Translations under genes and position numbers: made by a program
In this document: positions 25,163 to 51,227 of the stretch, piece after piece
How the letters are laid out: the number at the start of each line of letters is the position of its first letter
Position numbering within the stretch: position 1 is the stretch's first letter
The notes under the pieces: model-generated
What the model was told of the DNA's origin: nothing
Databases searched by the model: none
Seen by the model: only the letters and a program-made list of their open reading frames with translations
Assembly (NCBI GenBank): GCA_002410925.1
Contig: DHPR01000035.1
Location: 1-59,789 of the forward strand
Reading direction: 5' to 3'
Source: a bacterium UBP13_UBA5359
Lineage (GTDB): Bacteria > UBP13 > UBA5359
DNA: 59,789 bases

Positions 25163-25230
25163 AAGAAGGAATCTGGAAAAGGATAACGAATATTATAAAT
25201 TAAGCGTATGCATACAGATGTATACAGATG
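25163..25230 (+). promoter_or_regulatory. SigH-like promoter plus putative operator for the GntR/LacI regulator
   Basis: GAAGGAATCT-ggaaaaggata-ACGAAT (21-nt spacing), then tandem ATGCATACAG/ATGTATACAG repeats. Confidence 0.5.
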
Positions 25231-25248
25231 ATTTCTCAGGAGATGAAC

Positions 25249-26415
25249 ATGGACGATAACAACCGGAGTGGAGTAATAGAAAAGGACAGCCCTGTTCCTG
25301 TCTACAGGCAGGTGGAGGAGCATCTGAAGCAGAGCATTGCTTCAGGATACTTGCAGGCCTGCCAGAGAATGCCGTCCACCAGAGAATTGTGCCGGCAATT
25401 CGATATCAGCACTACCACGGCAGTGCTGGCGCTGAAGAGCCTGGTTAACGACGGATTTGCTTATACCGTACAGGGAAAGGGCACTTTTGTGGCGGACAGG
25501 AAGAAGGACCGTCCGGTGATAGGCCTGGTCATACCCCATCTCATCCTGAATAAGGACGTCGAAATGGCCAGGTATGACGCCAAGCATTTTGTTCCTTTGG
25601 TACATTTTATCGAGGATGAAGCCAGGAAAAGTGGGGCGGATATCCTGCTTTGCCTTGATAATGATAGCCCCGAGAATGAAAAGGAAAACATATTGAAACT
25701 GTTGCAGCGAGGTGTGGACGGAATAATAATTTACTACATAGGAGGGGAGAGCAATCTGAAGTATATCAGGCAGATAAAGGCGGCCGGGATACCGCTGGTG
25801 CTTATCGACAGATCTATAGACGGCATCGATGTCGATTATGTAACGACCGATAATTTCAGCGGTGCTTATAAAGCAACACGGTTTTTGCTGGAAAGTAGAT
25901 GTCCGGCCGATTATTACCTTTTTACCAATGCCGAAAAATGCAATGCGAATACGGAAAGAGAAAGAGGGTTTCAAAGAGCGCTGCTGGATTCCGGTCAGGC
26001 TATTCTCGGCAGCAGCATAAAGTCGGCCAGTTGTTATACCAATCTGGAGGATATCGAATACAATGCCAGATACGATGAAGAGATATACTGCCTGGCCAAG
26101 ACTCTGGCCGGTAAAAACCGGGATGTGCCCTTGGGAATCTTTGCCATCAACTCTCCTATTCTGGTGGGTGTATGGGAAGCTTTGAAGGAAATGCGGATAA
26201 ACCGTAGCAATCTTACCCTGGCCTGTTTTGACGAGCCGCCGCTGGCGATACCGGAAGAGGTTCCCTTTGCTATAGTTTTGCAGCCATTGGAAGAAATAGG
26301 CAGGCAGAGTGTCAGGATTGTAACGGAGAAGCTGGCAGGTGAAAAGGAGATACAGAGAATCGTTTTGCCGCCGGTGGTCAAGGTGGTGAATGAAGGCCGG
26401 GCACTGCCGATATAG
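25249..26415 (+). CDS. GntR wHTH + LacI-type sugar-binding transcriptional regulator (AraR-like)
   Basis: PVYRQVEE...MPSTREL...QGKGTFV GntR head; periplasmic-binding-fold tail (VLIDR, VTTDNFSG, ERERGF, QPLEEIGRQ). Confidence 0.92.
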   Translation: MDDNNRSGVIEKDSPVPVYRQVEEHLKQSIASGYLQACQRMPSTRELCRQFDISTTTAVLALKSLVNDGFAYTVQGKGTFVADRKKDRPVIGLVIPHLILNKDVEMARYDAKHFVPLVHFIEDEARKSGADILLCLDNDSPENEKENILKLLQRGVDGIIIYYIGGESNLKYIRQIKAAGIPLVLIDRSIDGIDVDYVTTDNFSGAYKATRFLLESRCPADYYLFTNAEKCNANTERERGFQRALLDSGQAILGSSIKSASCYTNLEDIEYNARYDEEIYCLAKTLAGKNRDVPLGIFAINSPILVGVWEALKEMRINRSNLTLACFDEPPLAIPEEVPFAIVLQPLEEIGRQSVRIVTEKLAGEKEIQRIVLPPVVKVVNEGRALPI

Positions 26416-26489
26416 TCGTCAGTGTATCTGCACGGAATTAAGGTCCTGTTAAGAAGTGTAAAAACCGTGAAAACGTGAAAGGGTGCTGA

Positions 26490-26708
26490 ATGAATAAGAG
26501 TAGGCTATGGGCATATCTTCACATAATTATGGTATTGTTTATACTGTCGGCTTTATCGATCGGTTGTCCGGCGTGGGCAGTCACCTACTCCACCGTAGCA
26601 TGCGAGGATTTATTCGCAAACCTAGGGTCCAAAAGCGTGGTCTACAAGAGTGAAGTTCTTTTGAACTTAGGTCAACTCATGATATACGAGGGTTCGTTAA
26701 CTTTCTGA
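26490..26708 (+). CDS. short signal-peptide ORF, possibly a truncated secreted protein
   Basis: GAAAGGGTG RBS and Sec signal ending in PAWA; only about 42 residues follow. Confidence 0.35.
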   Translation: MNKSRLWAYLHIIMVLFILSALSIGCPAWAVTYSTVACEDLFANLGSKSVVYKSEVLLNLGQLMIYEGSLTF

Positions 26709-26811
26709 ATGCATCTAAATGGTTTTAAGAATTTCTAAAGCAATTCAGGCAGCTACTAAATAAAATCATCCGGCACATTACCAGGTTCGTATTTGAGAGG
26801 AGTGAAATAAA

Positions 26812-27471
26812 ATGAAATGCCAAACAGCGAAAGGCCGGTGGAACGATAAGCTGTCCAACAATCAGAAGAGCCGCAGGACAGGATTTACCTTGATTGAACT
26901 CTTAACCGTTATCCTGATTATCGCCTTGTTGGTCGCCATATTGTTGCCGGTGTTCAGCCAAGCCAGGGAAAAGGCCAAACAAGCGCACTGCATCAGCAAT
27001 TTGAAGCAGCTCGGCCAGATCATGCAGATGTACGCGGCGGATTATGATGATTATATCTTGCCCTTCAACGTTACCTACAACAACGCCGATCAAATGGCCT
27101 ACCCTATGAGAGGAACGCCATGGTGGACGCTGACGATGCCGTATGCCGCCACTGTCGCCAATAAGCTTGTCTTTTGCCCCAGGCGGAGCTTCAGATACGG
27201 TATGAATCTCAATCTGTTCGTTGATGGCAAGAAGTACCGTACGCTTGCCGATACCGCCAGGATGGGCACTCTGGAGGGCAAAATGGTCTATATTATCTGC
27301 AGTGCTAGGGGCGCGGGCATCTGCCTGCATAACTATTATCCTGATGGATTTTATGGTGCCTACAAAGAGCACAATAACGGCCATAACGTCCTCTTCCTGG
27401 ACGGCCATGTCCAGTGGCTACGGGATATCCGCGCCAACAGCAGCGGCTATATCTGGTACTCCAGCAAATGA
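26812..27471 (+). CDS. DUF1559-type prepilin-like protein (type IV pilin N-terminal cleavage/methylation motif + H-X9-DG C-terminus)
   Basis: [48 protein letters not shown] and [14 protein letters not shown]. Confidence 0.93.
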
Positions 27472-27482
27472 GGTGTAAAAGG

Positions 27483-28955
27483 ATGAAGCGATGTTCGATC
27501 CTATCTTTGGCAATTCTTCTTGTCTGTATGATTTTTGCCCCATTAAGCGCCGCTGCAGAAAGATTCAGCTTCATGGTAACGGGCGACAGCCGGAGTTCCG
27601 GCCGGCCTTCGCCGGTGCTGGATAGCATTATGCATGAAGCTGCCCTGCTGCAGCCCGATTTTGTGGTCCACACCGGCGACTGGATGGATGCTCCGGACGA
27701 GGCCGGCTGGAGAAACTTTTTAACCGTGATGAAATCCGGCAAGGTTCCTTATCATCTGGTCATCGGCAATCATGAGACCGGTAAAGACTGGAAAGACCTG
27801 TATGGCAGGATGATAGGCAAGCCTCTTTACTACTCTTTTTCACACAAGGGGACGCTGTTCATCATCTTATGCTGTTATGCCGGCGAAAAAAGCAGCCTGA
27901 TCGACAGTGCCCAGTTTCAGTGGCTGACGGAGCAGTTGCAGCGCAAGGGTAAGACAGCCGGCCGGATCTTCGTTTTTGCGCATGAGCCTCTTTATCCGGT
28001 AGGCCCCCATATCGGTAGTTCGCTCGATAAGTACCCCGGAGAGAGGGATAAGCTGGCCGGCTTGTTTCGTCGATACGGTAATAAACTTATCTTCTTTTGC
28101 AGTCACGAGCATCTCTACAGCAAAAAGACGGTCGACGGCCTGACGCAGATAATCTCCGCCGGAGCTGGAGCGCCGCTTTATGCCTCGCCGGAAAAAGGCG
28201 GGTTTTACCATTACCTTTACGTTACGGTATCCGGCAGCATCTGCGATATTGCCCTTATCAAGCCCGGCAGCATCTTCGGAGACGAGTTGCTCTCCGATCC
28301 GGCCTACCAGCGCCGCGTATCCAGAGAGAGACGGGAAGCGGCCTGGGGAGTCATTCCCGTGGCTGAATTGCCCGGGCCGGTCAGGATAGATGGCGACCTA
28401 TCCGACTGGAAGGGCATAGTTCCGCTGCATCTGGAGAAAGACGACCTTTCGCCCGAAGACCTGGCGGCCGATGTCTATTTAAGCTGGGATAAAGATAACT
28501 TTTATTTCGGCGTTGAGGTCACGGACGATGCTCACGTCAACGGCAGAAAGGGAGCCGATATCTGGAACGGCGATTGTATCCAGATAGCTTTCGATGCTCT
28601 GGGCAACGCCGGCAAGGCAGGCTACGATAGCGATGACCGTGAGTTTGGTCTGGCTTTGGCCGCAGCGGGGCAGGTGTTCTACTGTTGGAAGGGTACATCC
28701 GGGCCGGGTGCCATGACCTTCCCGGCAGCAGTGATCAGAAAAGGCAATCGCACCTGTTACGAAGCGGCTATGCCACTGCAGGAAATCTTTCCCGTCCGTC
28801 CGGCAGCGGGCCTGAGGTTCGGTTTGAACTTGGCCGTCCTCGACGATGATACGGGCACATGCCTGGAGGGCCGGGTGGAACTCAGCGGCGGCATCGTCGG
28901 CGGCAAGGATCCTTCTCTTTTTAGAAAATTTATGTTTGCGGAGAGTGCCAAATGA
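27483..28955 (+). CDS. secreted calcineurin-like metallophosphoesterase fused to a CBM9/DOMON-like domain
   Basis: Signal peptide; GDSR, HTGD, GNHE, HEP, SHEH metal motifs; C-terminal IDGDLSDW...WDKDNFYFGVEVTDD...WNGDCIQ. Confidence 0.88.
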   Translation: MKRCSILSLAILLVCMIFAPLSAAAERFSFMVTGDSRSSGRPSPVLDSIMHEAALLQPDFVVHTGDWMDAPDEAGWRNFLTVMKSGKVPYHLVIGNHETGKDWKDLYGRMIGKPLYYSFSHKGTLFIILCCYAGEKSSLIDSAQFQWLTEQLQRKGKTAGRIFVFAHEPLYPVGPHIGSSLDKYPGERDKLAGLFRRYGNKLIFFCSHEHLYSKKTVDGLTQIISAGAGAPLYASPEKGGFYHYLYVTVSGSICDIALIKPGSIFGDELLSDPAYQRRVSRERREAAWGVIPVAELPGPVRIDGDLSDWKGIVPLHLEKDDLSPEDLAADVYLSWDKDNFYFGVEVTDDAHVNGRKGADIWNGDCIQIAFDALGNAGKAGYDSDDREFGLALAAAGQVFYCWKGTSGPGAMTFPAAVIRKGNRTCYEAAMPLQEIFPVRPAAGLRFGLNLAVLDDDTGTCLEGRVELSGGIVGGKDPSLFRKFMFAESAK

Positions 28956-29638
28956 GAAGTTGTATTAAGATGCCGGCACTGACGCTGGCAATTGTGATTC
29001 TGGCGGCAGCTTCTTCCCAGGCTCGAGCCGGGACGCAATTGCTGAAAGTCTGCCGGCAGATAACGTCGAAGGTATCCCTGGACGGCAGCCTGGAGGAGTG
29101 GAAAGCGGCCGCGGCCATCGATACGGAAAAAGAGGGCAAGATCAACGTGATCAGAAACAATAAGGATGATCTGTCCGCCGTGGCTTATACACTTTGGGAC
29201 AAAGGCAACTTTTACCTGGCTTTGTCCGTCAAGGATGATATTCACAAGAACGATGCCGCCGGAGGCGATATCTGGTCCGGTGACAGCGTGCAGTTTGCCT
29301 TCGATCCCACCCCGGACGATCCTAACGATATCTTCAACGACTATGAGTTCGGGATGGCGCTGACAAAACAGGGAACGGTGATCTGGCGCTGGGCACCCGC
29401 TATGGGCAGGGTAAACGCCGCCAAAGCTTGTATCGTGCACCGGGGCGGGACGACCGTATATGAACTTCAACTGCCTTTCACTGAGATGAACTTTGTTCCG
29501 GCCCGCGACAAGCAGTTGGGCTTTACCTTTGCCGTCAACGAGGATGACGGTAAAGGCTGGTGCGGCTGGCTGGAATGGACGCCCGGTATTTGCGGTTACA
29601 AGGACAGCATACTCTTCGGCAGATTGATTCTCAGGTAA
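28952..29638 (+). CDS. secreted stand-alone CBM9/DOMON-like sugar-binding protein
   Basis: Signal peptide; LDGSLEEW...WDKGNFYLALSVKDD...WSGDSVQFAFD...YELQLP; ATGA overlap with the previous gene. Confidence 0.85.
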   Translation: MRSCIKMPALTLAIVILAAASSQARAGTQLLKVCRQITSKVSLDGSLEEWKAAAAIDTEKEGKINVIRNNKDDLSAVAYTLWDKGNFYLALSVKDDIHKNDAAGGDIWSGDSVQFAFDPTPDDPNDIFNDYEFGMALTKQGTVIWRWAPAMGRVNAAKACIVHRGGTTVYELQLPFTEMNFVPARDKQLGFTFAVNEDDGKGWCGWLEWTPGICGYKDSILFGRLILR

Positions 29639-29653
29639 AGGGAAGGAGCGAAT

Positions 29654-32128
29654 ATGAGAGCAAAGGCTTTCTTAATGTCTTTATTGCTTGGCGGGGGAGT
29701 ATGGTGCAGCCAGCCGTCAAGTGCGGCGGTCCGGCAGGATAAGAGCCTGCCGGCGGCATTTGCCGTTGTCCGGAGTGATTTCAGGGAAACGCTGTCGGTG
29801 TATTTCCGCAACGACTCTCCGGCTCCCGTAACGGTGAAAGATATTTTCGTCGGGGACGACAACGTCAGGGAACTGGCTGAAAAGGGGCAGAAGATGGATT
29901 TTCGGGAGGAGCGGGCCGGTGTGGTCAGATGGTATGACGCACTTCCGGAGACGGTCAAGCCCGGCGATTTCGGCCTGGTCAGAGTGAGGTACGGCAAGAA
30001 GGGCGAGCTGGGCAGGAACATCAGGGTCAGGCTGATATCTCAGGACGGTAAGGATGTGATCAACGAAGAATTGCCGGTAATGAGAGACCCTTGGGTGCAG
30101 TTCGATTACTATAGTTTCGATGCCGGTCTGAGGAAACTGACCCTTTATCTGGACGGCCCGGCGGATTTTCAGCTCGAGACACTCTATATCGGCGGCAGGG
30201 AGTTGTTTTGTTCGGTGAAAGAGATACCTCTGGCGGCAGGAAAAAAACTACTCTTGGAGGCAACCCTGGAAGAGGCGGCCAACGAAGGCGCTTATCTGAT
30301 GGTAACGGCTGTTACCGATAAGGGATTGTGCGCTGCTCCGGTGCGGGCCATCAAGCCGTTCTTCTCTCTGGGCATGTTCCGGGTGTGCACCTGTGCGTCG
30401 GACGGTAAGACCGGGCCGCCGCCGGAGACGTGGCTCAGGGATTGCCAGGATCATTTCATCAATACCCTGACTTATGCTTATGAAAGCGATGAAGTTTTCG
30501 AGCAGGCCCTGCGCTATGGCTTGCGGTGCAGCTTTACTTGTCATTTCGAGAAAACAGCCGAAGCAGCCAGGCGGTTCTGTCTCCACCCTGCCTCCTGGGG
30601 CTGGTCTGTCTGCGATGAACCGGAGGGTTGGAATTGTCCTCCGATGCGCCTGGTAAAAGCCATGACCTCCTTGAGAGAGAACGCCCCCCTGCATCCCGGC
30701 TCCATGGTCTACTGCAACCGGCGCGCCTTTTTCGAATACGATTTCGATGACTTTCCGTTTGTGGATTACTATCCCGTCGCCTCCGCACCGTTGCAGGGAG
30801 CAGGCCGGATGGTGGAGATACTGAAATCCGCCGTCCGGCCCAAACCCGTGGGCTTTATACCGCAGGCATTCAGCGGCGGCGTCAACAAAAAGAACGGCAA
30901 CTCCAATCTGAATCGCTGGGGCAGGTTCCCCACGCCGGATGAAGAGCGGTTGATGGTCTACGATGCCGTGGCCAACGGGGCCAAAGCCCTGCATTATTTT
31001 GCCTATAACATAGAGCCGAACGAACCCGTTTACGGCGTAGGCGAAACCCAATCCCGGGAAGCAGGAGAGCTTTGGTCGGAGATTGGGAGGATAAATGCGG
31101 AACTGGAAGTGCTGGCGCCGTATCTCTGGTGCGGGGATGTCATGCCTCTGGGCAGTTCCCCGGAGGAGAATATAGATGTCAGGACTATCCTGGGCAGCGA
31201 TGTGCTGACGGTTTTCCTGCTGAATCGCGACAATACGTACACCAGAGAAGGCTTTGCATCCCGCCCCCGGCGGAATATCCGGATCAAGGTGAATGTGCCC
31301 TCATGGTTCAAGCCCTTTAAAGTCTGTGAGGTAAACCGGCAGGGCCGGCGCGAACTGCCTTACAGGATGAACAAGGGCTGCCTGGAGGTAAGCGTCCCAG
31401 ACCTGAGAGTTTGCAGTACCCTGGTAATTCCGGGGAGCGAAAGGGTCTGGCTGGATGTTCTGGGAAGAATGTTCGATACCCTCAACCCTGTCAGAGAACT
31501 GGTAAAGGTGCCAGTCATCGACGGTAGCTTGGCCGACTGGGAGGGGGTGGAGCCTCTGGTGCTCGATCCGGTCATGGCCCGGCCGGAATTTTACTATTCT
31601 TCAGCTTACAGGGAATCAGACGATTTGAATGTCAAGATCTACCTGGGGTGGGACAGGAAGAACCTCTATATAGCTGCCCGGGTCAAGGATAACATCTTCA
31701 AGCAGACCAAGTCGGGAGAGGGCATCTGGAGTGAAGACGCGTTGCAGCTGGCCGTGGCCCTTCCATCCGGCATAGACAAGACGGACCGGAGGGAAAGCAG
31801 GTCGGAGTACGGCTTTGCCCTCACCCGTGACGGTGCACAGGCCTACTGCTGGCACAGCCTGCAGCCGGCCGGAGAAGGCTTGCGGCATGATATACCGGTT
31901 GCTGTCAGGAGAACCGGTAACCTTACCGTTTACGAAGCGGCTGTGCCGCTGCAGGAACTGCAACTGTCGCCGGCAAAACCGTTCGGGCTGAATTTTGCCG
32001 TAATCGATGCGGATGACGGCGGCTACTGGAATATCCCCAAGTTCATGCAGCTTTCGCCCGGCATCGTGGGTGGTAAAGGTGTCTCGGGTTTTAAAAAGTT
32101 CATTCTGACGGAAGGAGCAGGACAGTGA
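29654..32128 (+). CDS. secreted hypothetical protein with a GH-like TIM-barrel region and C-terminal CBM9-like domain
   Basis: Signal peptide; WSVCDEP, DYYPV, PQAF, RFPTPDEERLMVYDAVANGAKALHYF; C-terminal IDGSLADW...WDRKNLY. Confidence 0.75.
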   Translation: MRAKAFLMSLLLGGGVWCSQPSSAAVRQDKSLPAAFAVVRSDFRETLSVYFRNDSPAPVTVKDIFVGDDNVRELAEKGQKMDFREERAGVVRWYDALPETVKPGDFGLVRVRYGKKGELGRNIRVRLISQDGKDVINEELPVMRDPWVQFDYYSFDAGLRKLTLYLDGPADFQLETLYIGGRELFCSVKEIPLAAGKKLLLEATLEEAANEGAYLMVTAVTDKGLCAAPVRAIKPFFSLGMFRVCTCASDGKTGPPPETWLRDCQDHFINTLTYAYESDEVFEQALRYGLRCSFTCHFEKTAEAARRFCLHPASWGWSVCDEPEGWNCPPMRLVKAMTSLRENAPLHPGSMVYCNRRAFFEYDFDDFPFVDYYPVASAPLQGAGRMVEILKSAVRPKPVGFIPQAFSGGVNKKNGNSNLNRWGRFPTPDEERLMVYDAVANGAKALHYFAYNIEPNEPVYGVGETQSREAGELWSEIGRINAELEVLAPYLWCGDVMPLGSSPEENIDVRTILGSDVLTVFLLNRDNTYTREGFASRPRRNIRIKVNVPSWFKPFKVCEVNRQGRRELPYRMNKGCLEVSVPDLRVCSTLVIPGSERVWLDVLGRMFDTLNPVRELVKVPVIDGSLADWEGVEPLVLDPVMARPEFYYSSAYRESDDLNVKIYLGWDRKNLYIAARVKDNIFKQTKSGEGIWSEDALQLAVALPSGIDKTDRRESRSEYGFALTRDGAQAYCWHSLQPAGEGLRHDIPVAVRRTGNLTVYEAAVPLQELQLSPAKPFGLNFAVIDADDGGYWNIPKFMQLSPGIVGGKGVSGFKKFILTEGAGQ

Positions 32129-34374
32129 GGTTGATGTTTATAATGATGATGGTGAGCAGTATGCTCCTACTGTCGGTGCCGGGGGCGGGAGCGTCCGAGA
32201 CGGGTATGGTCGGCTGGTGGCCGCTGGATGAGGGATATGGCAGAACGGTTTATGATCTTTCCGTGCTGAGGACTAACGGCACGATTTACGGTGCCGCCTG
32301 GGCGGCCGGTCTGACCGGTTCCTGTCCTGAGCTTACCGGCCCCGGCGAATTCATCCTTATTCCACACCGAGAGGAGTTCGATTTCGATAAAGAGTTTACC
32401 GTCTCCGCCTGGATATGCCCGTTTGCCCTGGCAGAGGGTGTGATTTTCGGCAACGGGGACGGGCACTTATCCGGCTATGTCTTTCAATTGAACGACGGTG
32501 GGTTGAGTGCAGTTCTGAAGAGAGACGGACAAACATGCCGAAGGATAGGGTACAGCGTCACCACGCCGAAGCTGTTACAGGAGAATGTCTGGTCGCATGT
32601 CAGCATTACCTACGACGGCGCCCAAAACGGGGTGCGGTTCTTTTGCGACGGCGCCAGGGCAGGAATCAGGCTGAAGGATAAAGAGGCGGCAGAACTATCG
32701 CCTGCAGGCAGGATTCGCTACCATGAAAAATGGGAAGATGCCAACGTGGCCCAGGTAAGCATCGGCACTTCTCCTATCTTCCCGTTGCGTTTCGGGCAGT
32801 TTCGCGGCCTGATCAGGGACGTTAAGCTTTACCGGCGTGCCCTGAGCGATGAAGAGATCATGGCCGATTATTTGAGAAGCGCTGCATCGATAGGCGCCCT
32901 TAAGGTAACGACCACCAGGGACAGGGAACGAAGCTGGCTTACCTGCCGCATCAAAGGCAGGACGGTGGATGAAAAGGGTAATCCGGTGGAGGCAAAACTC
33001 TCCCTGTCGGTCAATGGCAAATACTACTTTCCTGACGATACGCTCAGTTGGGGTGACAGAAATGGTGCTTCCTTCATTTCACCCAGGGGGGGCTTTGCTC
33101 TGGGCGTTCCACCAGGCAAGATAAGAATTGAGGCGTTTGGCGGCCCGGAGTTCTTTACGGCATCCCTGGAACTGGAGATGAAGGACAAATCGGAACAGGA
33201 ACTGATCATCGAGATGAAGCGATTGGTGGATATGCCGTCGCTGGGATGGTACGGAGGAGAGCATCATCTTCATTCCTATGGGCACGGCAAGGGGAAGACA
33301 TACGATTTCTTTCAGAGGCCGGACGGCTGGCGCTGGTGGGCGGCGGCCGCCATGGCGGCCGGGTTTAATTATGTTTCCAGCCCGGTGCCCAACCCGCAAG
33401 GCAACATCGCTTCCGCCTGGAACGACAGGTTTATCTGCGCCTCAACCACCGAAGGCGGTCCCTGGCTGGACGAAACGTGCAAGATCTGGAAGGCTGTCGG
33501 CGGAGGCGGCATTTGTATGATCCCCGACATAACGGCGGCGGAGAAGGCCGGCGTTCTGGCAGTGCCGCAGGGTTATCCGGATAATTGGCAGGAACTCTTC
33601 TTCGATTCCAATGTCTTCGGCTTCGACCGTAGCTTCCCAGTGGCGGTCGCGCTGGAGAAGGTCTATATCTGGGATGTCTATTATCGGGGGAAAGCTGTAA
33701 CTGCCAAGGATTGGTACAGGTATCTCAACTCCGGTTTCAAGCTGGGTATCGGCTCCGGCTCGGACGAGTATCTGTCCATAAGCCCGGCACCCGAAGCCAA
33801 GGAATATACCAAGCTGGAGAGCCTGTCCTGGCCGGAGGTAATCAAGGGATACAAAAGAAGGTGTACCTTCTGGACCTCCGGTCCTCTGGTAGTTTGCAAG
33901 ATCAACGGCAGGGATATCGGCGATACGGTATTCCTGCCGGTAAACGGCTCCGGCAAAGCACTTCTCTCCATCGAGGCCTGGGACAGGTACGGCTTGCAGC
34001 GGATAGAGGTTGTCAGGAACGGTGAAGTGCTGCAGACACTCGATTTGACGGATAACCCAGCGCATACCGGCAAGGAACTTCAACTGAATATCGAAAACAC
34101 CTGCTGGCTGGCCTTGAGGCTCTATGGAGGCAGGGGAGGCTTTGCTCATACATCTCCCATATATATTCAGTATGGTGACCGGCCGATGGTTCCCAGGCAG
34201 GAGGACATTGACTACTTCCTGAACTGGGTGAAGATGTATCGCAAATTTGTAGTCGACAACGCTGAAAAACAGAAAGTCGCTCCCGATGTCCTGACGCAGA
34301 CATTGAATTGGATCGGCCAGGCGGAGAATGTCTATCAGGGCTTAAGTAAGCCGGCAAATTACAGAAAATGGTGA
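32125..34374 (+). CDS. secreted LamG-domain + PHP-fold (CehA/McbA-like) metallohydrolase
   Basis: VGWWPLDEG...FTVSAWI...WSHVSITYD...RALSDEEI LamG; GWYGGEHHLHS, WYRYLNSG...GSD, TSGP, FAHTSPIYI. Confidence 0.8.
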   Translation: MRLMFIMMMVSSMLLLSVPGAGASETGMVGWWPLDEGYGRTVYDLSVLRTNGTIYGAAWAAGLTGSCPELTGPGEFILIPHREEFDFDKEFTVSAWICPFALAEGVIFGNGDGHLSGYVFQLNDGGLSAVLKRDGQTCRRIGYSVTTPKLLQENVWSHVSITYDGAQNGVRFFCDGARAGIRLKDKEAAELSPAGRIRYHEKWEDANVAQVSIGTSPIFPLRFGQFRGLIRDVKLYRRALSDEEIMADYLRSAASIGALKVTTTRDRERSWLTCRIKGRTVDEKGNPVEAKLSLSVNGKYYFPDDTLSWGDRNGASFISPRGGFALGVPPGKIRIEAFGGPEFFTASLELEMKDKSEQELIIEMKRLVDMPSLGWYGGEHHLHSYGHGKGKTYDFFQRPDGWRWWAAAAMAAGFNYVSSPVPNPQGNIASAWNDRFICASTTEGGPWLDETCKIWKAVGGGGICMIPDITAAEKAGVLAVPQGYPDNWQELFFDSNVFGFDRSFPVAVALEKVYIWDVYYRGKAVTAKDWYRYLNSGFKLGIGSGSDEYLSISPAPEAKEYTKLESLSWPEVIKGYKRRCTFWTSGPLVVCKINGRDIGDTVFLPVNGSGKALLSIEAWDRYGLQRIEVVRNGEVLQTLDLTDNPAHTGKELQLNIENTCWLALRLYGGRGGFAHTSPIYIQYGDRPMVPRQEDIDYFLNWVKMYRKFVVDNAEKQKVAPDVLTQTLNWIGQAENVYQGLSKPANYRKW

Positions 34375-34381
34375 GGGAGGG

Positions 34382-37099
34382 GTGCAAATGGTGTGCATGG
34401 CCAGGTTAGGTATAGCGGCTGTAATGCTGTTACTTATAAGCAGCGCCGGAGTGCAGGCAGCACCACCGCAGGTGCTCAAGGCGGGCGATTATACGGCAAC
34501 CGCTAACTGGATAACTTACAAGGGTCAGGTGAGAATCGATATCGGATTGTTCTATGTCCATTCCGGCTGGAAGAAATTCTTTCTCCACAGCGCCGGTATC
34601 GGCAAGGATACCAGACGCGGCCTCGAAGGCAACCTTCTCTTTTATGAAAGCACAGCCATCGACGGTTCCTATACCGCCAGGCTTGAAGTGCGGACGGAGG
34701 GGGAAAGCGCCGTTGGCGTCGACTTCTATCTTACCAGACACCAGGCAGAGACGGAGGGCGGTTATTCGCTGATCCCCTTCAGCCTGAGCCCGGAGTTCAT
34801 GGCCGGGGCCAGGGTATCGGCCGTCAAAGACGGAAAGACCGTTAACAGTGTGCCCTTTTCCGGTGCCGGTGAGATAATCATCGATAGTCTGGGATACAAA
34901 TTGAAACTTACCTCCACCGCCGGAGGAGAGTGGCTGGCCCTTAACAAAAACAACTGGGTGAATCACTTCTACGGAAGTCTTAAGCCCGGCGAGGAGCGGC
35001 ACTGGGGAGCGAAGATAGAGTTCTCCGGCGATATGGAAAAAGCCGCGGCTGCCGCCGTCCCGGCGGCGGAACAGAAGCCGCCCAGAGACGTGGCCGACGC
35101 CCGTACACCCGGGAAGGATGATTTTCCGGTGATACCCCTGCCCCGGGAGATGAATCTGCGGCCGGGAACGTTTCGTCTCGGTTCCGGAACAAAGATAATA
35201 ACCGGCGGAGGAACGGGAGACGGCGATTCCGACGGCGCCGTTCTGCTGCAGAAGGAATTGAGAGAGATATACCGTTTGCCTGTCGAGATCAGGCCTGCCG
35301 CAGCAATGAAGTCGTTCAGGGGGCATATACTTGTCGGAGAACCCTGGAAGAACAGGGCCGTGCAGGAGGCACTGGCCGAACAGGCACTGACCGTCACGCC
35401 AGAGAGTCCCGGGAAGGAGGGCTATCTTCTGCTGATTACTCCGGAAGAAGTCGTCGTGGCCGGCTCGGATGACAGCGGGACATTCTGGGGTATTCAGACC
35501 CTGCTGCAACTGCTGCGGCAAGGCGGGAAGGAGGTCTGTCTGCCGGCACTGATAATCAGGGACCGGCCGGCTCTGCCGGTAAGAGGCGCCTGTTTCTTCA
35601 GTGAGGCGCCGGTGCCGGTAAGCTCGTTTGAAACGTTTGCCGAAAAGGTTATGGCCAGGCATAAGCTCAACACGCTGGTCCTCAGCCTGGATAACTGGTT
35701 CAATTTCCCTTCGCATCCGGAGATCAATCCCAAGGGGGTACAGAGAGGCGAGCTGGAAAAAGTATTAGAAATTTGTCAGCGCAACCGTATACGCGTCGTG
35801 CCCGAGATCGATTGCCTGAGGAGCGTCAGCGGCATTCTGAAAGCTCATCCTGAGTTGGCGGAGAACCCCCGGGAAAGTTACCCTGACGCCTGCCCCTCCA
35901 ATCCCGCCTTATACAAGCTGCTGGAGGATCTTTTCAGCGACGTGGAGGAGATTGCCAGGCCGTACGGCGGCTTTGACATCTTCTCCATCGCCTGCGACGA
36001 AGTGCAGCAGGCCGATTTCGGAATGTGTCAGAGGTGCAAGGCAACGGGTAAAACCCCGCCGGAGCTTTTTGCCCGGGCTATTACCTGCTGGCACGATTAC
36101 TGGGCGGCCAAAGGAATAAGAACTATGGTCATCGGTGATTCCCTGAGGCTGTACGGCCGGGGTCAGCTTGAGCCGGCCAGAAAGTTGATCCCCAAAGATA
36201 CGATCATCTCCTTCTGGGGATATGCCGGCGGCGGCACCCCCAGTCCCTTTAAAGAGGAAGGCTTTCCCGTTATCGGCTGCTGGCAGTTTCATTCCGGTAA
36301 TATCAGCGATTTTGCCGTATCGGTGCAGGACTGTGAAAAAGGTCTCGGCATATACGGGCTACATACCACGCTCAGCCGGGATTTGCTGCAGCAGGCATTG
36401 GATTATCCCAACGCCGCCCACAATGATTATTTGAATATCTACGCCGGGGATTGCGCCTGGAATCCCGGTAAGAGATCGCCGGCCGATCTTCCCTACAATA
36501 TGTATCAGCGTTATCTGGACCTGCTCTCCTGCAAACCCAACCTGTCACGGGATGAAAAGCCTCGCAAAGGCTTTCTAGTGGACCTGCAGCCTTATCTCAA
36601 CTACGATCTGCCGGCCCGTCTGAAGGACTTGCCGCGGGGAGAGGTCAGGCTGGGAGATACCCTGTTCGCCACCGGGGATAAGGGAGTCGTTGTCTGGGGA
36701 CCGCTGCTGGGAAGTATCCCGGAGAAGGTGTCTATTCCTATCGGCAGAAAAGCGGAATCCCTGGTTTTTCTGCACGGCTGCCTGAAGGATATCTGGGCTG
36801 ATTACAAAGGCTATGCAGGTTGGAAGGGTGAGGTGGGACGCTACCGCATTTTCCTGGAAGGGGATGCCGTTGTAGATGTAAATCTCGTTACCTGCGAACA
36901 GATACAGGCTTTCAGCGCCACCCCGGAAAGAGGGGTAACTGAGCCGGCCAGCATTGCCTGGCAGGGTCAAAGCGGACGCCTTTATTCCTGCCGCTGGAAA
37001 AACCCCGATCCGACTAGGATGATAGAGAAGATGGAGTTTATCTCCGGCAAGACCAAAGCCGGTCCCATGCTTTTGGCTGTTACGGGGCTGGAAGAATAA
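34382..37099 (+). CDS. secreted GH20-like beta-N-acetylhexosaminidase
   Basis: VIPLP, EGYLL...GTFWGIQTLLQL...IRDRP (GH20 domain 2), KLNTL, VVPEID, CPSNP, catalytic D-E pair in ACDEV. Confidence 0.82.
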   Translation: MQMVCMARLGIAAVMLLLISSAGVQAAPPQVLKAGDYTATANWITYKGQVRIDIGLFYVHSGWKKFFLHSAGIGKDTRRGLEGNLLFYESTAIDGSYTARLEVRTEGESAVGVDFYLTRHQAETEGGYSLIPFSLSPEFMAGARVSAVKDGKTVNSVPFSGAGEIIIDSLGYKLKLTSTAGGEWLALNKNNWVNHFYGSLKPGEERHWGAKIEFSGDMEKAAAAAVPAAEQKPPRDVADARTPGKDDFPVIPLPREMNLRPGTFRLGSGTKIITGGGTGDGDSDGAVLLQKELREIYRLPVEIRPAAAMKSFRGHILVGEPWKNRAVQEALAEQALTVTPESPGKEGYLLLITPEEVVVAGSDDSGTFWGIQTLLQLLRQGGKEVCLPALIIRDRPALPVRGACFFSEAPVPVSSFETFAEKVMARHKLNTLVLSLDNWFNFPSHPEINPKGVQRGELEKVLEICQRNRIRVVPEIDCLRSVSGILKAHPELAENPRESYPDACPSNPALYKLLEDLFSDVEEIARPYGGFDIFSIACDEVQQADFGMCQRCKATGKTPPELFARAITCWHDYWAAKGIRTMVIGDSLRLYGRGQLEPARKLIPKDTIISFWGYAGGGTPSPFKEEGFPVIGCWQFHSGNISDFAVSVQDCEKGLGIYGLHTTLSRDLLQQALDYPNAAHNDYLNIYAGDCAWNPGKRSPADLPYNMYQRYLDLLSCKPNLSRDEKPRKGFLVDLQPYLNYDLPARLKDLPRGEVRLGDTLFATGDKGVVVWGPLLGSIPEKVSIPIGRKAESLVFLHGCLKDIWADYKGYAGWKGEVGRYRIFLEGDAVVDVNLVTCEQIQAFSATPERGVTEPASIAWQGQSGRLYSCRWKNPDPTRMIEKMEFISGKTKAGPMLLAVTGLEE

Positions 37100-37119
37100 A
37101 TATAAACGAGAGGTGCACT

Positions 37120-37869
37120 ATGTTTGAAATATGCTCCAGGTTATTGGCAGGCGTTAGTCTTTTGTGGGTTCTAATTCTGAGTGCGATTCCGTCCGTTGCA
37201 AATGGGGAAGCTGCAAAGGAGATATCGTCCGTTAGTGCCGTCCCTGTCCTTTATCTGAACTTCGATGCCGGTATGGGCAATGTAGCCAGGGATAAGTCCG
37301 GCAATGACTATGACTGCAACTGCATCGGGGAACCGAAGTGGCTGAAGATGAAGCAGGGTTTTGCTCTGGAATTCGATGGGGTGGACGATATGGTAATGGT
37401 AAAGGGAGAGAAGATAAATATCTCGTCCTCGGCATCGTTCACCATCAGCCTTTGGATAAAGCCCGAGGCGGTGCAGAAGTCCAGATACAAGATATTTATG
37501 GGCGGCGGCAGGGATTGGGATGCTCAGACAGTGAGCATGACGATGAGAGAACTTTATCCGGGACGGGGCAACAGATGCCCGCTTGCGGTGGATGCCGGCT
37601 CCTGGCAGATGGTGGCTTTTACTTATGATGCCGGCAGCAAAACGGTTGCCGGTTACCTCAATGGCGAGCCGGTATCGAAGTCGGAGTGCAAAACGGACTT
37701 CGGTCCCGCCGGCGGTTTCGGCATCGGTGCCGGGGAGAGCGGTGTATATTACAAGGAGGGATACTTCAAAGGCTGGATCGATGAATTCAAAATATATGAC
37801 AGAGCTTTGGCAGCAGGAGAAATCAAAAACGAATACGAAAGATTAAAGGATGCTTTTGCCGGCGTTTGA
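37120..37869 (+). CDS. secreted LamG-like jellyroll protein
   Basis: Signal peptide; LNFDAG..DKSGN, ALEFDGVDD, FTISLWIKP, WQMVAFTYD, FKGWIDEFKIYDRAL. Confidence 0.88.
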   Translation: MFEICSRLLAGVSLLWVLILSAIPSVANGEAAKEISSVSAVPVLYLNFDAGMGNVARDKSGNDYDCNCIGEPKWLKMKQGFALEFDGVDDMVMVKGEKINISSSASFTISLWIKPEAVQKSRYKIFMGGGRDWDAQTVSMTMRELYPGRGNRCPLAVDAGSWQMVAFTYDAGSKTVAGYLNGEPVSKSECKTDFGPAGGFGIGAGESGVYYKEGYFKGWIDEFKIYDRALAAGEIKNEYERLKDAFAGV

Positions 37870-37960
37870 CGGAGCAAGCTGCCGCCGGTAAATATATGCA
37901 ACATACGGGCAGCAGAAGCATCAGGCAAAACAGGCAAATGATGTAACGGAGGGTTTAACC

Positions 37961-40876
37961 ATGATTGATGTTGCTTCCTCTTACACTTCCATGCCGGCAC
38001 TGCTGGCCCGCATCGAGACCGAGCTTGAATTCGCCGGTAAGTTACTGCAGTTCTTTCCCGATGAGGCTTGTGCCGCCGAAAGGGAGGAGGCACAGGCCTT
38101 TTTGGCTCGCAGCCGGAGCGGCATGAGTGCCGATAACGCCGGCGCTATAGTGGCCGAATGCGAGAGGATGCTGACCAAAACGGCGACTCTGGCCAAGAGC
38201 ATTACCGTGCACATGGTAGCTCATGCCCATATAGATATGAACTGGATGTGGGGCTACGATGAGACGGTGGCTGTCACTCTGGATACCTTCGGGACCATGC
38301 TGAAGCTGATGGAGCGCTACCCGGAGTTCACCTTCTCGCAGAGCCAGGCTTCGGTTTACCGGATAGTGGAGAAGTACAACCCGGCCATGCTGAAGGAGAT
38401 CAGGCAGAGGGTAGCCGAGGGACGCTGGGAGGTATCCTCCTGCACCTGGGTGGAAGGGGATAAGAACATGGCCTCCGGCGAGAGCCAGGTGCGCCAGGTA
38501 TTGTATGCCAAGCGCTTCTTCCGTGATATCTTCGGCCTAAGCTATGACGATATCAGGCTGGACTTCGAGCCGGACACCTTTGGCCATAATCTCAATATTC
38601 CGGCCATCCTGGCCCAGGCGGGCGTCAGGTATTACTATCACTGCCGGGCTACGGACGGTCCCAAGCTCTCCCGTTGGCAGTCCCCGGACGGCAGCAGCCT
38701 GCTCTGCTACTTTGAAAAGGGCGACGACTGGTACAACTACGACGTCAGCGCTGCCAGGGTGGTCGATTCGGCCTACAATGAGATCAAGGAGACCGGTTGC
38801 CGGGAGGTGCTGCGCGTCTACGGTGTGGGTGACCACGGCGGAGGCCCTACCGTTAGGGATATAGAAAGCATCATAGAGATGGCCGCTTGGCCCGTATTCC
38901 CCACTGCCAGGTTCTCCACCTACGGAGAGTATTTCAACCGCATCGAGGCCGCCGATCCGGATTTACCTCGGCTGGAAGGAGAGCGCAACTTCATCTTTAC
39001 CGGCTGCTATACCTCGCAATCGGATACCAAGGCCGCCAACCGTTACGGCGAGAAACTGCTGTTCACCGCCGAAGCCCTGGCCGCTCTGGCCGGGAAGCTA
39101 GACAAGGATTTCAGCTACCCGCAGGCCAATCTGCAGGACGCTTGGGAGAAGGTACTCTTCAGCCAGTTTCACGATATCTTGCCCGGCTCAGGCAAACGCC
39201 AGACCAGGCATTATGCACTGGGACAGCATCAGGAAGTCAAAGCTGCCGCCGGAGTGGCACTGAAATCGGCTCTGGCGGCCATCAACGGCGCCATCGATAC
39301 CGGAGCCGTTATCAAAGCGGCCGGTATACAAGCTGTCGTCGGTGAGGATAGAGCATTCGGCGCCGGTGCGGGCTTCTGGCAGGTAGCTAAGGGGGTATCG
39401 CTCCCGGCTGTGGATGACAGGAACTGCCGCCTCTTCACCGTTTTCAATCCCTCGTCCTTCCCGCGCTCGGAGGTAGTGGAGGCGGTGCTCTGGGATATGG
39501 AAGACAGCGAGGGAGCTCTGGTCGTCAAGGACGACCGCGGCCGAGAAGTTGCCTATCAGATGCTGGAAGAGCCGCGTTACTACTGGGGTCATACCTTTCA
39601 ACGGATACTCTTTGAAGCCGGCGATGTGCCGGCGCTGGGATATAAAACCTTTATCGTCTACCGTGATGCTGCCAGACAGGCGAAGGAACTGGAAGAGTGG
39701 AATTATCGTCTGGAAGCGTCCACAGAGGCCACATTGGAGAACGAAATCCTGAGAGTCGAGCTGGATACCGCCAGCGGCGCCGTCAAGAGTTTGGTAATGA
39801 AGGATATCGGCACCGAATTCGTCCCCCGTCAGGAGGCGACGGCGCTGTTCAGGATTATCGATGAAGGTCCGAGTATATCCGCTGCCAACGGCAAAACCAA
39901 TCCGGGCATGACCGCCTGGCAGATCGGAGCCTACGCCGGCATCGAGCCGGTAAAGGGTGTCCGGTATATCGATGAGGGACAGCCGGACTTCACTTTAGGA
40001 GTGGAGAAGACATCCTTCAAAGCGGTCAGAGGCGCGCTGAGAACCGGCTTTGTCTGGACCGCCCGACTGCGTAACTCCGAGCTGACCACAGCCGTATATC
40101 TGGATAAAGGCTCGGACCGTATCAATATCGATTGTCAGTGCAACTGGCTGGAGACGGGGCGGCCGGGAGGATACGTGCCGCAGCTTAACATCGTCTTCCC
40201 GCTGGCGCTGGAAGGCACGGTCCGCCACTTTGAAGTGCCGTTCGGCGCCATACGCCGGGATGCCCGAAACATGGACCTGCCCGCCCTGCGCTGGGCCGAT
40301 ATCTCCGGCATCGTCAAAGGCACCGGCAGTCAGGCCGGGTTGACGGTCATGACCGATTCCAAATACGGCTACCGCGCCGGCGATGACAGCCTGGCTGTTT
40401 CGTTGATCAGGAGCAGTTACGATCCCGATCCTTTTCCAGAGCTGGGCGAGCATCGTTTCTCTCTGGCCCTGCGCCCGCATTACGGACCCTGTGATAAGGC
40501 CGCGGCTTTCCGCCAGGCCATCGCCTTTGAACAGCCGTTGATCGTCTCCCAGGCCACTGCCGGCGGGGGCACCATGCCGTCTGAAGGATCGTTTCTCGAG
40601 GTTATGAACGATAACCTGGTTCTGTCTGCCCTGAAGCGGCAGGAAGACGGTGACGGCATCGTGGTCAGGCTTTACGAGATAGCCGGTCGGGATACACAGG
40701 CCAAAATACGCTTCTCCCCCCAACTGGCCGGCCCCGGCGCGATGGTAGCGGAGACGGATTTGCTGGAACGCAAGACAGGTAAAGCTAGGGAAGTAGCGAA
40801 TAACGCCGTCATCTTCCACGTGCCGGCTTACGGTATATTGACCTTGTTGCTGGAAAACGCTCCAATGGGTAATTAA
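37961..40876 (+). CDS. alpha-mannosidase (GH38), cytoplasmic
   Basis: HAHIDMNWMW, FSQSQ, PDTFGH, YGVGDHGGGPT, GCYTSQ, QFHDILPGS, FEVPFG, KYGY; no signal peptide. Confidence 0.95.
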   Translation: MIDVASSYTSMPALLARIETELEFAGKLLQFFPDEACAAEREEAQAFLARSRSGMSADNAGAIVAECERMLTKTATLAKSITVHMVAHAHIDMNWMWGYDETVAVTLDTFGTMLKLMERYPEFTFSQSQASVYRIVEKYNPAMLKEIRQRVAEGRWEVSSCTWVEGDKNMASGESQVRQVLYAKRFFRDIFGLSYDDIRLDFEPDTFGHNLNIPAILAQAGVRYYYHCRATDGPKLSRWQSPDGSSLLCYFEKGDDWYNYDVSAARVVDSAYNEIKETGCREVLRVYGVGDHGGGPTVRDIESIIEMAAWPVFPTARFSTYGEYFNRIEAADPDLPRLEGERNFIFTGCYTSQSDTKAANRYGEKLLFTAEALAALAGKLDKDFSYPQANLQDAWEKVLFSQFHDILPGSGKRQTRHYALGQHQEVKAAAGVALKSALAAINGAIDTGAVIKAAGIQAVVGEDRAFGAGAGFWQVAKGVSLPAVDDRNCRLFTVFNPSSFPRSEVVEAVLWDMEDSEGALVVKDDRGREVAYQMLEEPRYYWGHTFQRILFEAGDVPALGYKTFIVYRDAARQAKELEEWNYRLEASTEATLENEILRVELDTASGAVKSLVMKDIGTEFVPRQEATALFRIIDEGPSISAANGKTNPGMTAWQIGAYAGIEPVKGVRYIDEGQPDFTLGVEKTSFKAVRGALRTGFVWTARLRNSELTTAVYLDKGSDRINIDCQCNWLETGRPGGYVPQLNIVFPLALEGTVRHFEVPFGAIRRDARNMDLPALRWADISGIVKGTGSQAGLTVMTDSKYGYRAGDDSLAVSLIRSSYDPDPFPELGEHRFSLALRPHYGPCDKAAAFRQAIAFEQPLIVSQATAGGGTMPSEGSFLEVMNDNLVLSALKRQEDGDGIVVRLYEIAGRDTQAKIRFSPQLAGPGAMVAETDLLERKTGKAREVANNAVIFHVPAYGILTLLLENAPMGN

Positions 40877-46538: not shown

Positions 46539-47234
46539 ATGCCTAAAAAGATTCTGGTCGTGGACGATGAGCCGTTCCTGGTAGAATCGATTGTCTACAA
46601 TCTGGAGAAGGAAGGCTATGACGTTATCAGCAGCGGCGACGGGCGGCAGGGACTGGAACTTGCCCGGAGCCGGAGGCCGGACCTGGTCATTCTGGATCTT
46701 ATGCTGCCCTCGCTGAGCGGCCTCGACGTGTGCCGTCAACTGCGGGCTGAAACTAATATCCCCATTATCATGCTCACCGCCAAGGGCGAGGAGATAGACC
46801 GCATCGTCGGTTTGAAGCTGGGTGCGGACGATTATATGGTCAAGCCTTTCAGCATGCAGGAACTGCTGGCCAGGGTGGAGGCCGTGCTCAGGCGCACCTC
46901 CTGCGATGCCGGCGGGGCAGAAGAGACGTATAAGACAGACGGAATCCATCTCGATGTCAGCCGGCATGAAGTTGAAGTGGACGGCGCCGGGGTGGAACTC
47001 TCTCCCAAGGAGTTCGGTCTGCTGCATATCCTCATGGCCAACGCCGGCAGGGTGGTCAGCCGGGAGATGCTGCTGGAAAAGATCTGGGGCCAGGATTTCT
47101 ACGGGGACGACCGCACCGTCGATGTCCATATACGCTGGCTGCGCGAGAAGATAGAGCCGGATCCCTCCACACCCAGCCGCCTGGTAACAATCAGGGGCCT
47201 GGGATACAAGCTTAGGGGGCGTCCAAATTGGTAA
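46539..47234 (+). CDS. phoP: OmpR/PhoB-family response regulator (PhoP/PhoB)
   Basis: Receiver + wHTH (RTVDVHIRWLREKIE..P....TIRGLGY); adjacent to a phoR-like kinase and the pst operon. Confidence 0.85.
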   Translation: MPKKILVVDDEPFLVESIVYNLEKEGYDVISSGDGRQGLELARSRRPDLVILDLMLPSLSGLDVCRQLRAETNIPIIMLTAKGEEIDRIVGLKLGADDYMVKPFSMQELLARVEAVLRRTSCDAGGAEETYKTDGIHLDVSRHEVEVDGAGVELSPKEFGLLHILMANAGRVVSREMLLEKIWGQDFYGDDRTVDVHIRWLREKIEPDPSTPSRLVTIRGLGYKLRGRPNW

Positions 47235-47258
47235 TCTTATTTATGGACGTCCCCTTAA
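47212..47258. repeat. REP-like inverted repeat between phoP and phoR
   Basis: AGGGGGCGTCCA ... TGGACGTCCCCT overlapping the phoP 3' end. Confidence 0.5.
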
Positions 47259-47273
47259 TAAAGGGGTGATCGT

Positions 47274-49034: not shown

Positions 49035-49062
49035 GGCAAAAGCCCTTTTCGCTAAATATAAC

Positions 49063-49116
49063 TTGACATTTTGAAAACCACACCATATAATCAGCTAAAA
49101 TGGCTAATTAGCTGAT
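49063..49116 (+). promoter_or_regulatory. consensus sigma70 promoter plus inverted-repeat operator for the Phd-Uma2 gene
   Basis: TTGACA-17-TATAAT, followed by ATCAGCTAA-n9-TTAGCTGAT over the TSS. Confidence 0.8.
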
Positions 49117-49130
49117 GGGGGTATGTTTTG

Positions 49131-49880: not shown

Positions 49881-49955
49881 AATCAACCGGCGGAGGTATT
49901 TTTCTATTGAACGTTGCAGCCAGGCGATACTTGTTCAAGCGAATGTTGAATAATT

Positions 49956-51225: not shown

Positions 51226-51227
51226 CC

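Follow-up and report, generated by a model that had tools for sequence, protein, structure and literature searches.

Pilins could be a regular part of glycan utilization in the bacterium UBP13_UBA5359, as our data indicate. The window analysed here is an entire contig of 59,789 bp (DHPR01000035.1 of assembly GCA_002410925.1; contig C30 of genome G000), one of 40 in a genome of 2.25 Mb with a completeness rating of 98.4%. It carries at 25228-40876 a glycan locus headed by a sugar regulator and a prepilin of the DUF1559 (H-X9-DG) family. We found that the order of regulator, pilin and exported glycan proteins is more than chance and recurs as the rule of this genome. By sequence comparison the genome's type IVa pilus cluster also encodes a member of the same family, which is a new point. 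We propose, with a probability of about 0.4, that the locus prepilin is an operon-specific type IVa pilin paralogue, processed by PilD, that confers glycan capture. Few protein families that lack an assigned function are as large as DUF1559, and its role bears on the question of how planctomycetes and their neighbours seize large polysaccharides without SusC/D. The genome offers a compact case, with ~36 family members in 2.25 Mb, most of them preceded by a sugar regulator gene and followed by genes for exported glycan enzymes. In limited searches we found no literature describing regulator-pilin-enzyme modules, or a pilus-cluster pilin as a member of this family.

We detected 37 matches to PF07596 in 36 open reading frames (ORFs) of the genome, and a stricter motif chose 33 of them for the neighbour analysis. 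In 20 of the 32 loci other than that of the window, the pilin gene is immediately preceded on its own strand by a gene for a sugar-type regulator, i.e. 12 GntR proteins with a periplasmic-binding-protein-like (PBP) domain, four LacI, two AraC, one GntR-UTRA and one DeoR. Locus L016 and the window have a regulator within ~1 kb upstream, which brings the total to 22 of 33, and the other 11 have none within that distance. At least 12 paralogues of the window's regulator lie directly 5' of other DUF1559 genes. The median gap is 66 bp between regulator and pilin (20 loci) and 42.5 bp between pilin and next gene (28 loci). Among the 27 directly downstream genes scanned, 16 encode LamG, carbohydrate-binding module (CBM) or glycoside hydrolase (GH) domains, three are sugar-metabolic and five match no family. 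Farther downstream, the 71 genes that follow encode many GH123, GH42, GH20, GH38, GH89, GH130, sialidase-like and LamG proteins and include four SBP_bac_1 proteins, with no ATP-binding cassette (ABC) permease among them. Of 21 LamG proteins, 17 lie no more than 10 kb from a DUF1559 gene, vs 22.5% of 1465 genes, and the binomial p of 2e-8 overstates this enrichment since the loci are not independent.

The base composition of the pilin genes follows the same layout. The GC content at third codon positions (GC3) of a pilin gene correlates strongly with that of the gene downstream (r = 0.83, n = 28) and less with that of the regulator (r = 0.35, n = 27), the baseline for adjacent genes in general being r = 0.59 (n = 995). 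A similar arrangement is found outside this genome. The unrelated metagenome contig L045 (6.1 kb) encodes, in the same order, a regulator, a pilin, a CBM9 protein, an 818-aa enzyme and a LamG/PHP protein with identities of 22%, 37%, 54%, 54% and 41% to the window's proteins, respectively, and its pilin has the same C-terminal region as the window's. Another contig, L046, keeps the 818-aa-type enzyme and the LamG/PHP protein, and the homologous contigs have GC contents of 45% and 28%. The recurrence in 33 loci, the synteny with L045 and the GC3 coupling to the next gene all support the earlier claim that the pilin belongs with the glycan genes. The regulator-pilin-enzyme order gives a rule that could predict glycan loci where predictors of polysaccharide utilization loci (PULs) fail.

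The assignment of the prepilin to the family relies on several lines of evidence. Its scores exceed the curated cut-offs (in brackets) of PF07596, 33.9 bits (23.3) over residues 50-111, PF07963, 26.6 (21.2), TIGR04294, 20.6 (19) over residues 186-203, and TIGR02532, 23.6 (16.3); in the genome-wide PF07596 scan it is the weakest passing copy, at 23.6 bits. It has the Gly at -1, the hydrophobic N-terminus and the Glu at +5 of a class III signal. Across 34 aligned pilins E5 and P22 are invariant (34/34), as are two Cys residues, and the head between the Cys pair is hypervariable. The C-terminal motif is H187-X9-D197-G198, with H187 and G198 kept in at least 90% of the 34 sequences. We predicted the structure of the prepilin with AlphaFold2 (predicted local distance difference test, pLDDT, 74.1), which gave a helix at residues 27-77 and six strands. 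Foldseek returned no match for this model at E <= 0.001, and the fold call therefore comes from VIA-align, where 24 of the 25 top structural matches are type IV pilins or pseudopilins, e.g. PilA4 with Z 6.2 and EpsG with Z 6.0. The solute-binding-protein fold suggested by the Pfam name SBP_bac_10 was considered too, and is absent among the VIA-align matches listed.

The family matches number 37, 29 and 51 in the three species of the lineage, so the family is native to it. A tree of the pilins leaves 34 of 49 inner branches unresolved, and supports neither orthology nor a donor. DUF1559 is reported (PMC10632474) as the largest paralogue group of Planctopirus limnophila, with 68 copies of unknown function. 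The window pilin likewise belongs to a large paralogous family, as in Planctomycetes; the difference is that here the genome is small, the lineage is outside the phyla usually named, 22 of 33 copies stand behind sugar regulators and one copy is the pilin of a pilus cluster.

The genome encodes the machinery that such a pilin would need. Contig C1 carries, in locus L048 (18843-31669), pilB, a gene for a PilT-type ATPase, pilC, pilD, three pilin genes, pilM and a secretin gene in this order; pilM is separated from the secretin gene by three ORFs that gave no diagnostic match. The PilD protein has both the A24_N and Peptidase_A24 domains. The pilM ORF of this cluster is unusually long, at 526 aa. 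Contig C13 carries a type II secretion system (T2SS) with GspD, E, F, G, H, I, J, K and M and a PilM/PilN-like (L-like) protein. Further machines include a Tad-like set, an extra PilB and three extra PilT-type genes, and there are four secretins in the genome. The preliminary description held that a lack of type IV assembly machinery would refute its reading, and a complete type IVa cluster, with a prepilin peptidase, PilB, PilC and a secretin, is present alongside the T2SS and the Tad-like set.

The pilin encoded right after pilD is by its sequence an H-X9-DG family member. It shares 30% identity with the window pilin along almost the whole chain, the H-X9-DG end included (E 1e-22), and it matches a profile of 34 family members at 99.8% probability. 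It has one-to-one orthologues in the two congeners (89% and 56%), and its next best matches are DUF1559 paralogues. GspG, in contrast, aligns with the window pilin along the N-terminal helix only (53 residues, E 0.006). The window pilin fails the GspG models as well, reaching 37.4 bits on TIGR01710 (cut-off 88.85) over its N-terminal 58 residues only and giving no match to PF08334, on which the genome's own GspG scores E 3.1e-38. The family link hence points to the type IVa pilus rather than to the T2SS, which weakens the T2SS half of the coupling that had been suggested earlier.

We also examined the family in other phyla. A scan with the family alignment gave 78 loci, mainly from Lentisphaerota, Verrucomicrobiota, Planctomycetota and Armatimonadota, and the pilin ORF could be placed in 74; this sample consists of the best matches to the pilins of our genome and is biased. 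With a hidden Markov model built on the regulators of our genome, a LacI or GntR-PBP regulator is found directly upstream in 11 of 71 loci, vs 5 of 541 at the other positions from -6 to +6, and Pfam gives an upstream regulator in 12 of 71 (10 Lentisphaerota, one Phycisphaeraceae and one other). About 10 of the 60 foreign downstream genes scanned (11 ORFs shorter than ~90 aa having been dropped) are glycan or sugar-metabolic genes, and four encode phosphoesterases. Among the 120 longer relatives listed, two are fusions of a regulator with a pilin and two are H-X9-DG pilins with two discoidin (galactose-binding-like) domains (P0196 and P0222). The fusions, both labelled Omnitrophota, are P0137 (GntR at residues 11-72, binding domain at 83-361, N_methyl at 424-446, DUF1559 from 451) and P0139 (LacI at 11-51, binding domain at 77-339, N_methyl at 414-436, DUF1559 from 441). 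The residue before FTLIE in these two proteins is Ser or Ala, not Gly.

Two published systems are similar to this one in part. A 2026 paper on Verruconatronum alginivorum (PMC13274419) describes a pulG-like pseudopilin gene with 67 genomic homologues, located inside an alginate-induced cluster, and also a pseudopilin that is over-expressed on alginate; its authors name no role beyond possible T2SS export. The pulG-like gene resembles our pilin in its place within a polysaccharide cluster, and differs in phylum and substrate, and the comparison is made by description and not by sequence. Pili-like fibres that bind dextran are reported in planctomycetes, which are rich in DUF1559, and the available part of that paper (PMC5394234) names no subunit.

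The locus has no transporter, as the preliminary description had observed: no transporter family matched among its proteins. We found no ABC binding protein or permease in 25228-40876, the nearest SBP_bac_1 gene being at 13606-14928, and neither the locus nor its neighbourhood encodes a SusC-type TonB-dependent receptor (SusD models were not searched). BPD_transp_1 permeases occur as three pairs in the genome, i.e. Pst in the window, an Opp-like pair, so labelled from the cluster layout without a family scan, and one sugar-type pair on contig C40 that has no binding protein or ATPase beside it. There are 12-13 SBP_bac_1 proteins dispersed over the genome, four of them inside other pilin operons, seven MFS_1 proteins, no MFS_2 match in the genome, and one TonB-dependent receptor (PF00593) on another contig. 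Because 12-13 SBP_bac_1 proteins stand against a single sugar-type permease pair, the absence of a transporter from the locus is the habit of the genome, and inner-membrane import is probably shared and provided in trans. For the inner membrane there is thus no need to let the pilin replace an uptake component, as had been suggested. The SBP_bac_1 protein 10 kb upstream of the locus is a candidate binding protein for its oligosaccharides, and its 66% relative sits in a GH123/GH130 pilin operon. This gene has no permease beside it, and its product is 75.5% and 66% identical to two others. No dedicated candidate was found for the outer-membrane step.

Our proposal could work as follows. Once the operon is induced, PilD would cleave the prepilin, which would then be incorporated in, or attached to, the retractile type IVa pilus (PilB/PilT/PilC/PilMNOPQ). 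The fibre would gain affinity for the substrate of this operon through the variable head of the pilin, either directly or because the head holds the co-expressed CBM9 and LamG proteins, and the six Sec-exported enzymes and binding proteins would cut the captured polymer outside the cytoplasm. The oligosaccharides would enter by the single shared sugar ABC permease, fed by the dispersed binding proteins, and the cytoplasmic GH38 would finish the degradation. We infer the PilD processing, the incorporation into a fibre, the glycan binding, the identity of the substrate and the import route alike.

Several points weigh against this proposal. Machine genes are near only one of the 36 family genes here and three of the 78 foreign loci. 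The tightest gene-order link and the gene fusions are with the regulator and not with the enzymes, which also fits signalling, and the regulator link itself is rare outside Lentisphaerota in our sample (2 of 12 positives). The confidence of the pilin model is middling and its structural Z-scores (~6) are modest. The orthology of the window and L045 pilins relies only on synteny and the nearest path in the tree, and the substrate assignment is a family-level annotation only.

The pilin could instead be a signalling partner of the regulator, reporting external polymer and controlling the AraR/LacI-type protein, e.g. through a membrane pool of unassembled pilin or through tethering and release, and this role may coexist with capture. 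The regulator's place directly upstream, in 20 of 32 loci here and in the foreign sample by both measures, and the two proteins that fuse regulator and then pilin argue for such a role. It is weakened by the sugar-binding domain that the regulators already bear and that is able to sense imported sugars, by the GC3 of the pilin genes, which follows the enzymes and not the regulator, and by the 11 of 33 loci without a regulator within ~1 kb upstream. The fusions are two of 120 longer proteins listed, both labelled Omnitrophota, and may only reflect translational coupling. We consider this explanation unlikely, though it is the strongest of the competing ones.

A lower probability is given to the pilin being a secretion adaptor, placed in the T2SS pseudopilus or in a pilus machine that acts as a secretion device. 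We know of no T2SS that uses cargo-specific major pseudopilins, and the T2SS of this genome has its own GspG-K set, from which the window pilin is set apart by its helix-only match and its sub-threshold score, its full-length relative being the pilus-cluster pilin. A complete T2SS is present, however, and all six enzymes, with their Sec signal peptides, would need a route across the outer membrane. The authors of PMC13274419 propose T2SS export for the alginases adjoining their pseudopilin.

In the preliminary description the pilin takes over the part of the uptake component, which would mean that pilus retraction pulls polysaccharide through a secretin into the periplasm, like competence pili do with DNA. 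We regard this as improbable. We know of no direct evidence of glycan uptake through secretins in any organism, exported hydrolases and porins would suffice for oligosaccharides, and the SBP_bac_1 proteins with the sugar-type permease pair are a conventional candidate for the inner membrane. The lack of a SusC-type receptor in the locus, the single TonB-dependent receptor genome-wide, and the four secretins and several PilT-type ATPases speak for it, as does the gold-labelled dextran of which some was apparently internalized in planctomycetes with dextran-binding fibres (PMC5394234). Finally, it is very improbable that DUF1559 is an expanding family that inserts at operon heads without a direct functional link, as the very divergent and dispersed paralogues and the many foreign loci without a glycan context might suggest, given the positional enrichment, the synteny, the GC3 coupling, the fusions and the published co-induction.

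We speculate, with considerable doubt, on a more general form of the capture proposal. DUF1559 proteins may enter a retractile type IVa pilus as subunits that are induced by sugar and specific for one substrate, with each operon providing its own pilin. The pilus decorated in this way would bind the polymer, reel it to or through PilQ by PilT-driven retraction and report the substrate to the adjacent, sometimes fused, regulator. If true, the system would do with a pilus what SusC/D does in capture, and it would be common to Planctomycetota, Verrucomicrobiota, Lentisphaerota, Armatimonadota and this lineage.

The proposed capture pilus can be compared with known systems. Among these are the type IVa accessory binding pilins such as ComP, the DNA-receptor minor pilin, which share the class III signal, E5, P22 and the pilin fold (Z 5.3 for ComP), and which work with a machine with PilT, as is encoded here. 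The differences are that ~35 regulated paralogues are dispersed here in catabolic operons, vs few in the pilus locus, and that the ligand would be a glycan. Ruminococcus has cellulose-binding pilins. GspG, PulG and EpsG share the N-terminal helix and the overall fold (Z 6.0 for EpsG and 4.8 for PulG), but the head of the window pilin is ~70 residues larger and has the H-X9-DG end. The Bacteroidota SusC/SusD PULs resemble our loci in having a regulator, binding proteins and exported GHs per glycan and many repeats per genome; here the locus has no SusC-type gene, a pilin occupies the position of the capture genes, and the regulator is of the AraR/LacI type. A Gram-positive-type glycan locus would have a regulator, an ABC importer and GHs, and differs by the binding protein and permeases within the locus.

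The features of the locus are listed in the table below.

Features of the glycan locus in the window
Feature	Coordinates	Strand	Evidence or remark
AraR-type sugar regulator, GntR winged helix and LacI-type sugar-binding domain	25228..26415	+	PF00392 E 3.8e-14; PF13407, PF00532, PF13377
Regulator-pilin spacer, 396 bp	26416..26811	+	one promoter-like site 26518-26545; 72-codon ORF 26490-26708
DUF1559 / H-X9-DG prepilin, 219 aa	26812..27471	+	class III signal (G|FTLIE) with E5 and P22; two invariant Cys; head variable; H-X9-DG at the C-terminal end
Secreted calcineurin-like metallophosphoesterase with C-terminal CBM9-like domain	27483..28955	+	PF00149 E 2.6e-12; PF06452 E 2.4e-11
Secreted stand-alone CBM9-like protein, 228 aa	28952..29638	+	PF06452 E 6.7e-15; 54% identical L045 orthologue adjoining pilin
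Secreted 824-aa protein with C-terminal CBM9_1, probable glycoside hydrolase of a rare unclassified family	29654..32128	+	structure model
Secreted LamG and CehA/McbA-type (PHP-like) metallohydrolase, 749 aa	32125..34374	+	PF13385 E 2e-17; NF038032 92.8 bits, cut-off 80
Secreted GH20-like hexosaminidase or lacto-N-biosidase-like enzyme, 905 aa	34382..37099	+	PF02838 E 2e-20; PF00728 27.8 bits, cut-off 22.3
Secreted stand-alone LamG protein (Laminin_G_3), 249 aa	37120..37869	+	PF13385 E 4.2e-19
Cytoplasmic GH38 alpha-mannosidase, 971 aa, without signal peptide	37961..40876	+	four GH38 Pfam domains, N-domain E 1.5e-55

The gene list of the preliminary description is confirmed gene by gene, with the sensor, the prepilin, six coupled secreted proteins and GH38 all present and every long gene of the region on the + strand. 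Its start of the sensor gene at 25249 is an internal ATG, and the regulator begins at 25228, with the GntR helix-turn-helix at residues 26-88 and the LacI-type binding domain at 117-382. The PHP domain assigned earlier is recognized as the NCBIfam CehA/McbA metallohydrolase, and the Pfam PHP models gave no match. From the pilin on, the genes are spaced by +11, -4 (ATGA), +15, -4 (GTGA), +7 and +20 bp, and then by +91 bp before GH38. Judged by eye from the translations, all six middle proteins have signal peptides and GH38 has none. The locus is flanked by genes for an SNF2 helicase and a P-type ATPase.

We searched the non-coding parts for control elements. In the promoter and terminator scan, promoter-like sites are no commoner than in shuffled sequences (12 found vs 12.2 expected). 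The regulator-pilin spacer has no convincing operator palindrome, the single match having 13-nt arms that are 77% complementary. Neither a paralogue in the genome nor a counterpart in L045 was found for the ORF in this spacer, which starts like a signal peptide with a lipobox-like motif (LSIGC) and is possibly not a gene. An Rfam scan of the window matched only a tRNA-Leu at 349-432.

The substrate is probably a phosphorylated glycan with mannose and N-acetylhexosamine carrying phosphodiester or phosphate groups, e.g. microbial or fungal cell-wall glycans or N-glycan-like material, because family names point to an Ams1-like GH38, a GH20-like enzyme, two exported metallophosphoesterases, three CBM9-like and two LamG modules. 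The N, middle, C and C2 domains of GH38 are all above their cut-offs, and Ams1-type alpha-mannosidases are its best solved relatives (E 4e-62). The GH20-like enzyme matches GH20b at 74.2 bits, and its catalytic domain matches weakly, at 27.8 bits over profile positions 78-260 of 348 only. Its PDB relatives range from 1e-14 to 1e-9, with the beta-N-acetylhexosaminidase 8bal (1.2e-14) and the lacto-N-biosidase 4h04 as the best. The three CBM9 proteins of the locus score 44.3, 55.9 and 30.7 bits on PF06452 (cut-off 23.4), and their binding is predicted only. Metagenomes of fermentation, landfill and sludge samples, 11 studies in all, contain DNA of the locus, and no RNA data set is listed for it.

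The 824-aa protein is a probable glycoside hydrolase of a rare, unclassified family, judging from its structure model. The model (pLDDT 70.7) has two beta-sandwiches, a TIM-like barrel, a beta-sandwich and a CBM9-like domain, and Foldseek places GH66 dextranases first among the structural matches (E 7e-14), ahead of GH13, GH39 and GH5. Residues 1-600 match no Pfam family. Seven homologues including the query were found at E <= 0.001, three of them close (46-54% identity), and an initial contig scan with this protein gave no match. Orthologue fragments of the 749-aa LamG/CehA protein are encoded in L045 and L046 at 41-42% identity. The LamG proteins also match the NCBIfam model for the fimbrial protein TafC, a haloarchaeal Tat-fimbria subunit, and we took this as a likeness of the LamG fold only. 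A weak Pfam match of a LamG protein of another locus to the N-terminal domain of the Clostridium neurotoxin receptor-binding region was dismissed, a stronger LamG match covering the same residues.

The organism was previously said to have a Firmicutes-like backbone, and our data do not support this. The genome encodes BamA, a porin, four secretins and one TonB-dependent receptor, and the presence of BamA, secretins and a porin indicates a diderm cell. The closest relatives of its PheT are in the same genus (93% and 81%), and the next ones, at 42-48%, are a mix of Armatimonadetes and Firmicutes. The PheT of the window (3959-6022) is without the N-terminal tRNA-binding domain PF01588 that the Firmicutes matches carry, and is of a short 687-aa form as in the Armatimonadetes matches. 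In the sequence collection examined, the phylum consists of three species of one genus.

Horizontal acquisition, which had been raised as a possibility, is plausible for the module, but the pilin family itself is native to the lineage. The window pilin and the seven downstream genes have GC3 values of 0.59-0.71 (92nd-99th percentile), the highest of the 33 operons, and the GC content of the locus is 55.8% vs 50.5% in the left flank. Neither congener has an orthologue of the 824-, 749- or 905-aa protein, the best matches there being 32-35% identical; the genome's own paralogues of these proteins are equally distant (30-33%), and we read the congener matches, by sequence, as counterparts of those paralogues. 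Loss from the congeners or selection on codon use could also account for these observations, and the Pho genes at 46.5-54 kb show equally high GC3. A chimeric contig could produce the same shift in GC, but in four other studies the flank is found together with the locus at a similarly low depth. Short contigs from these studies cover flank and locus at >99% identity, none of them spanning the full stretch.

Some further features of the window were noted. The right half of the contig is compositionally unusual beyond the glycan locus. A Pho block at 46539-55421 (a PhoB/PhoR-like pair, porin O/P, PstS-C-A-B and PhoU) has GC3 values at the 92nd-99.7th percentile, and its porin gene is at 50272-51225. 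In a single ORF at 49128-49880, the N-terminus of a Phd/YefM antitoxin is fused to a putative restriction endonuclease domain of the Uma2 type. At 7242-10260 a gene for a DUF4127 protein is followed by one for a FAD_oxidored protein, and the same FAD_oxidored family is found inside a pilin operon on contig C39.

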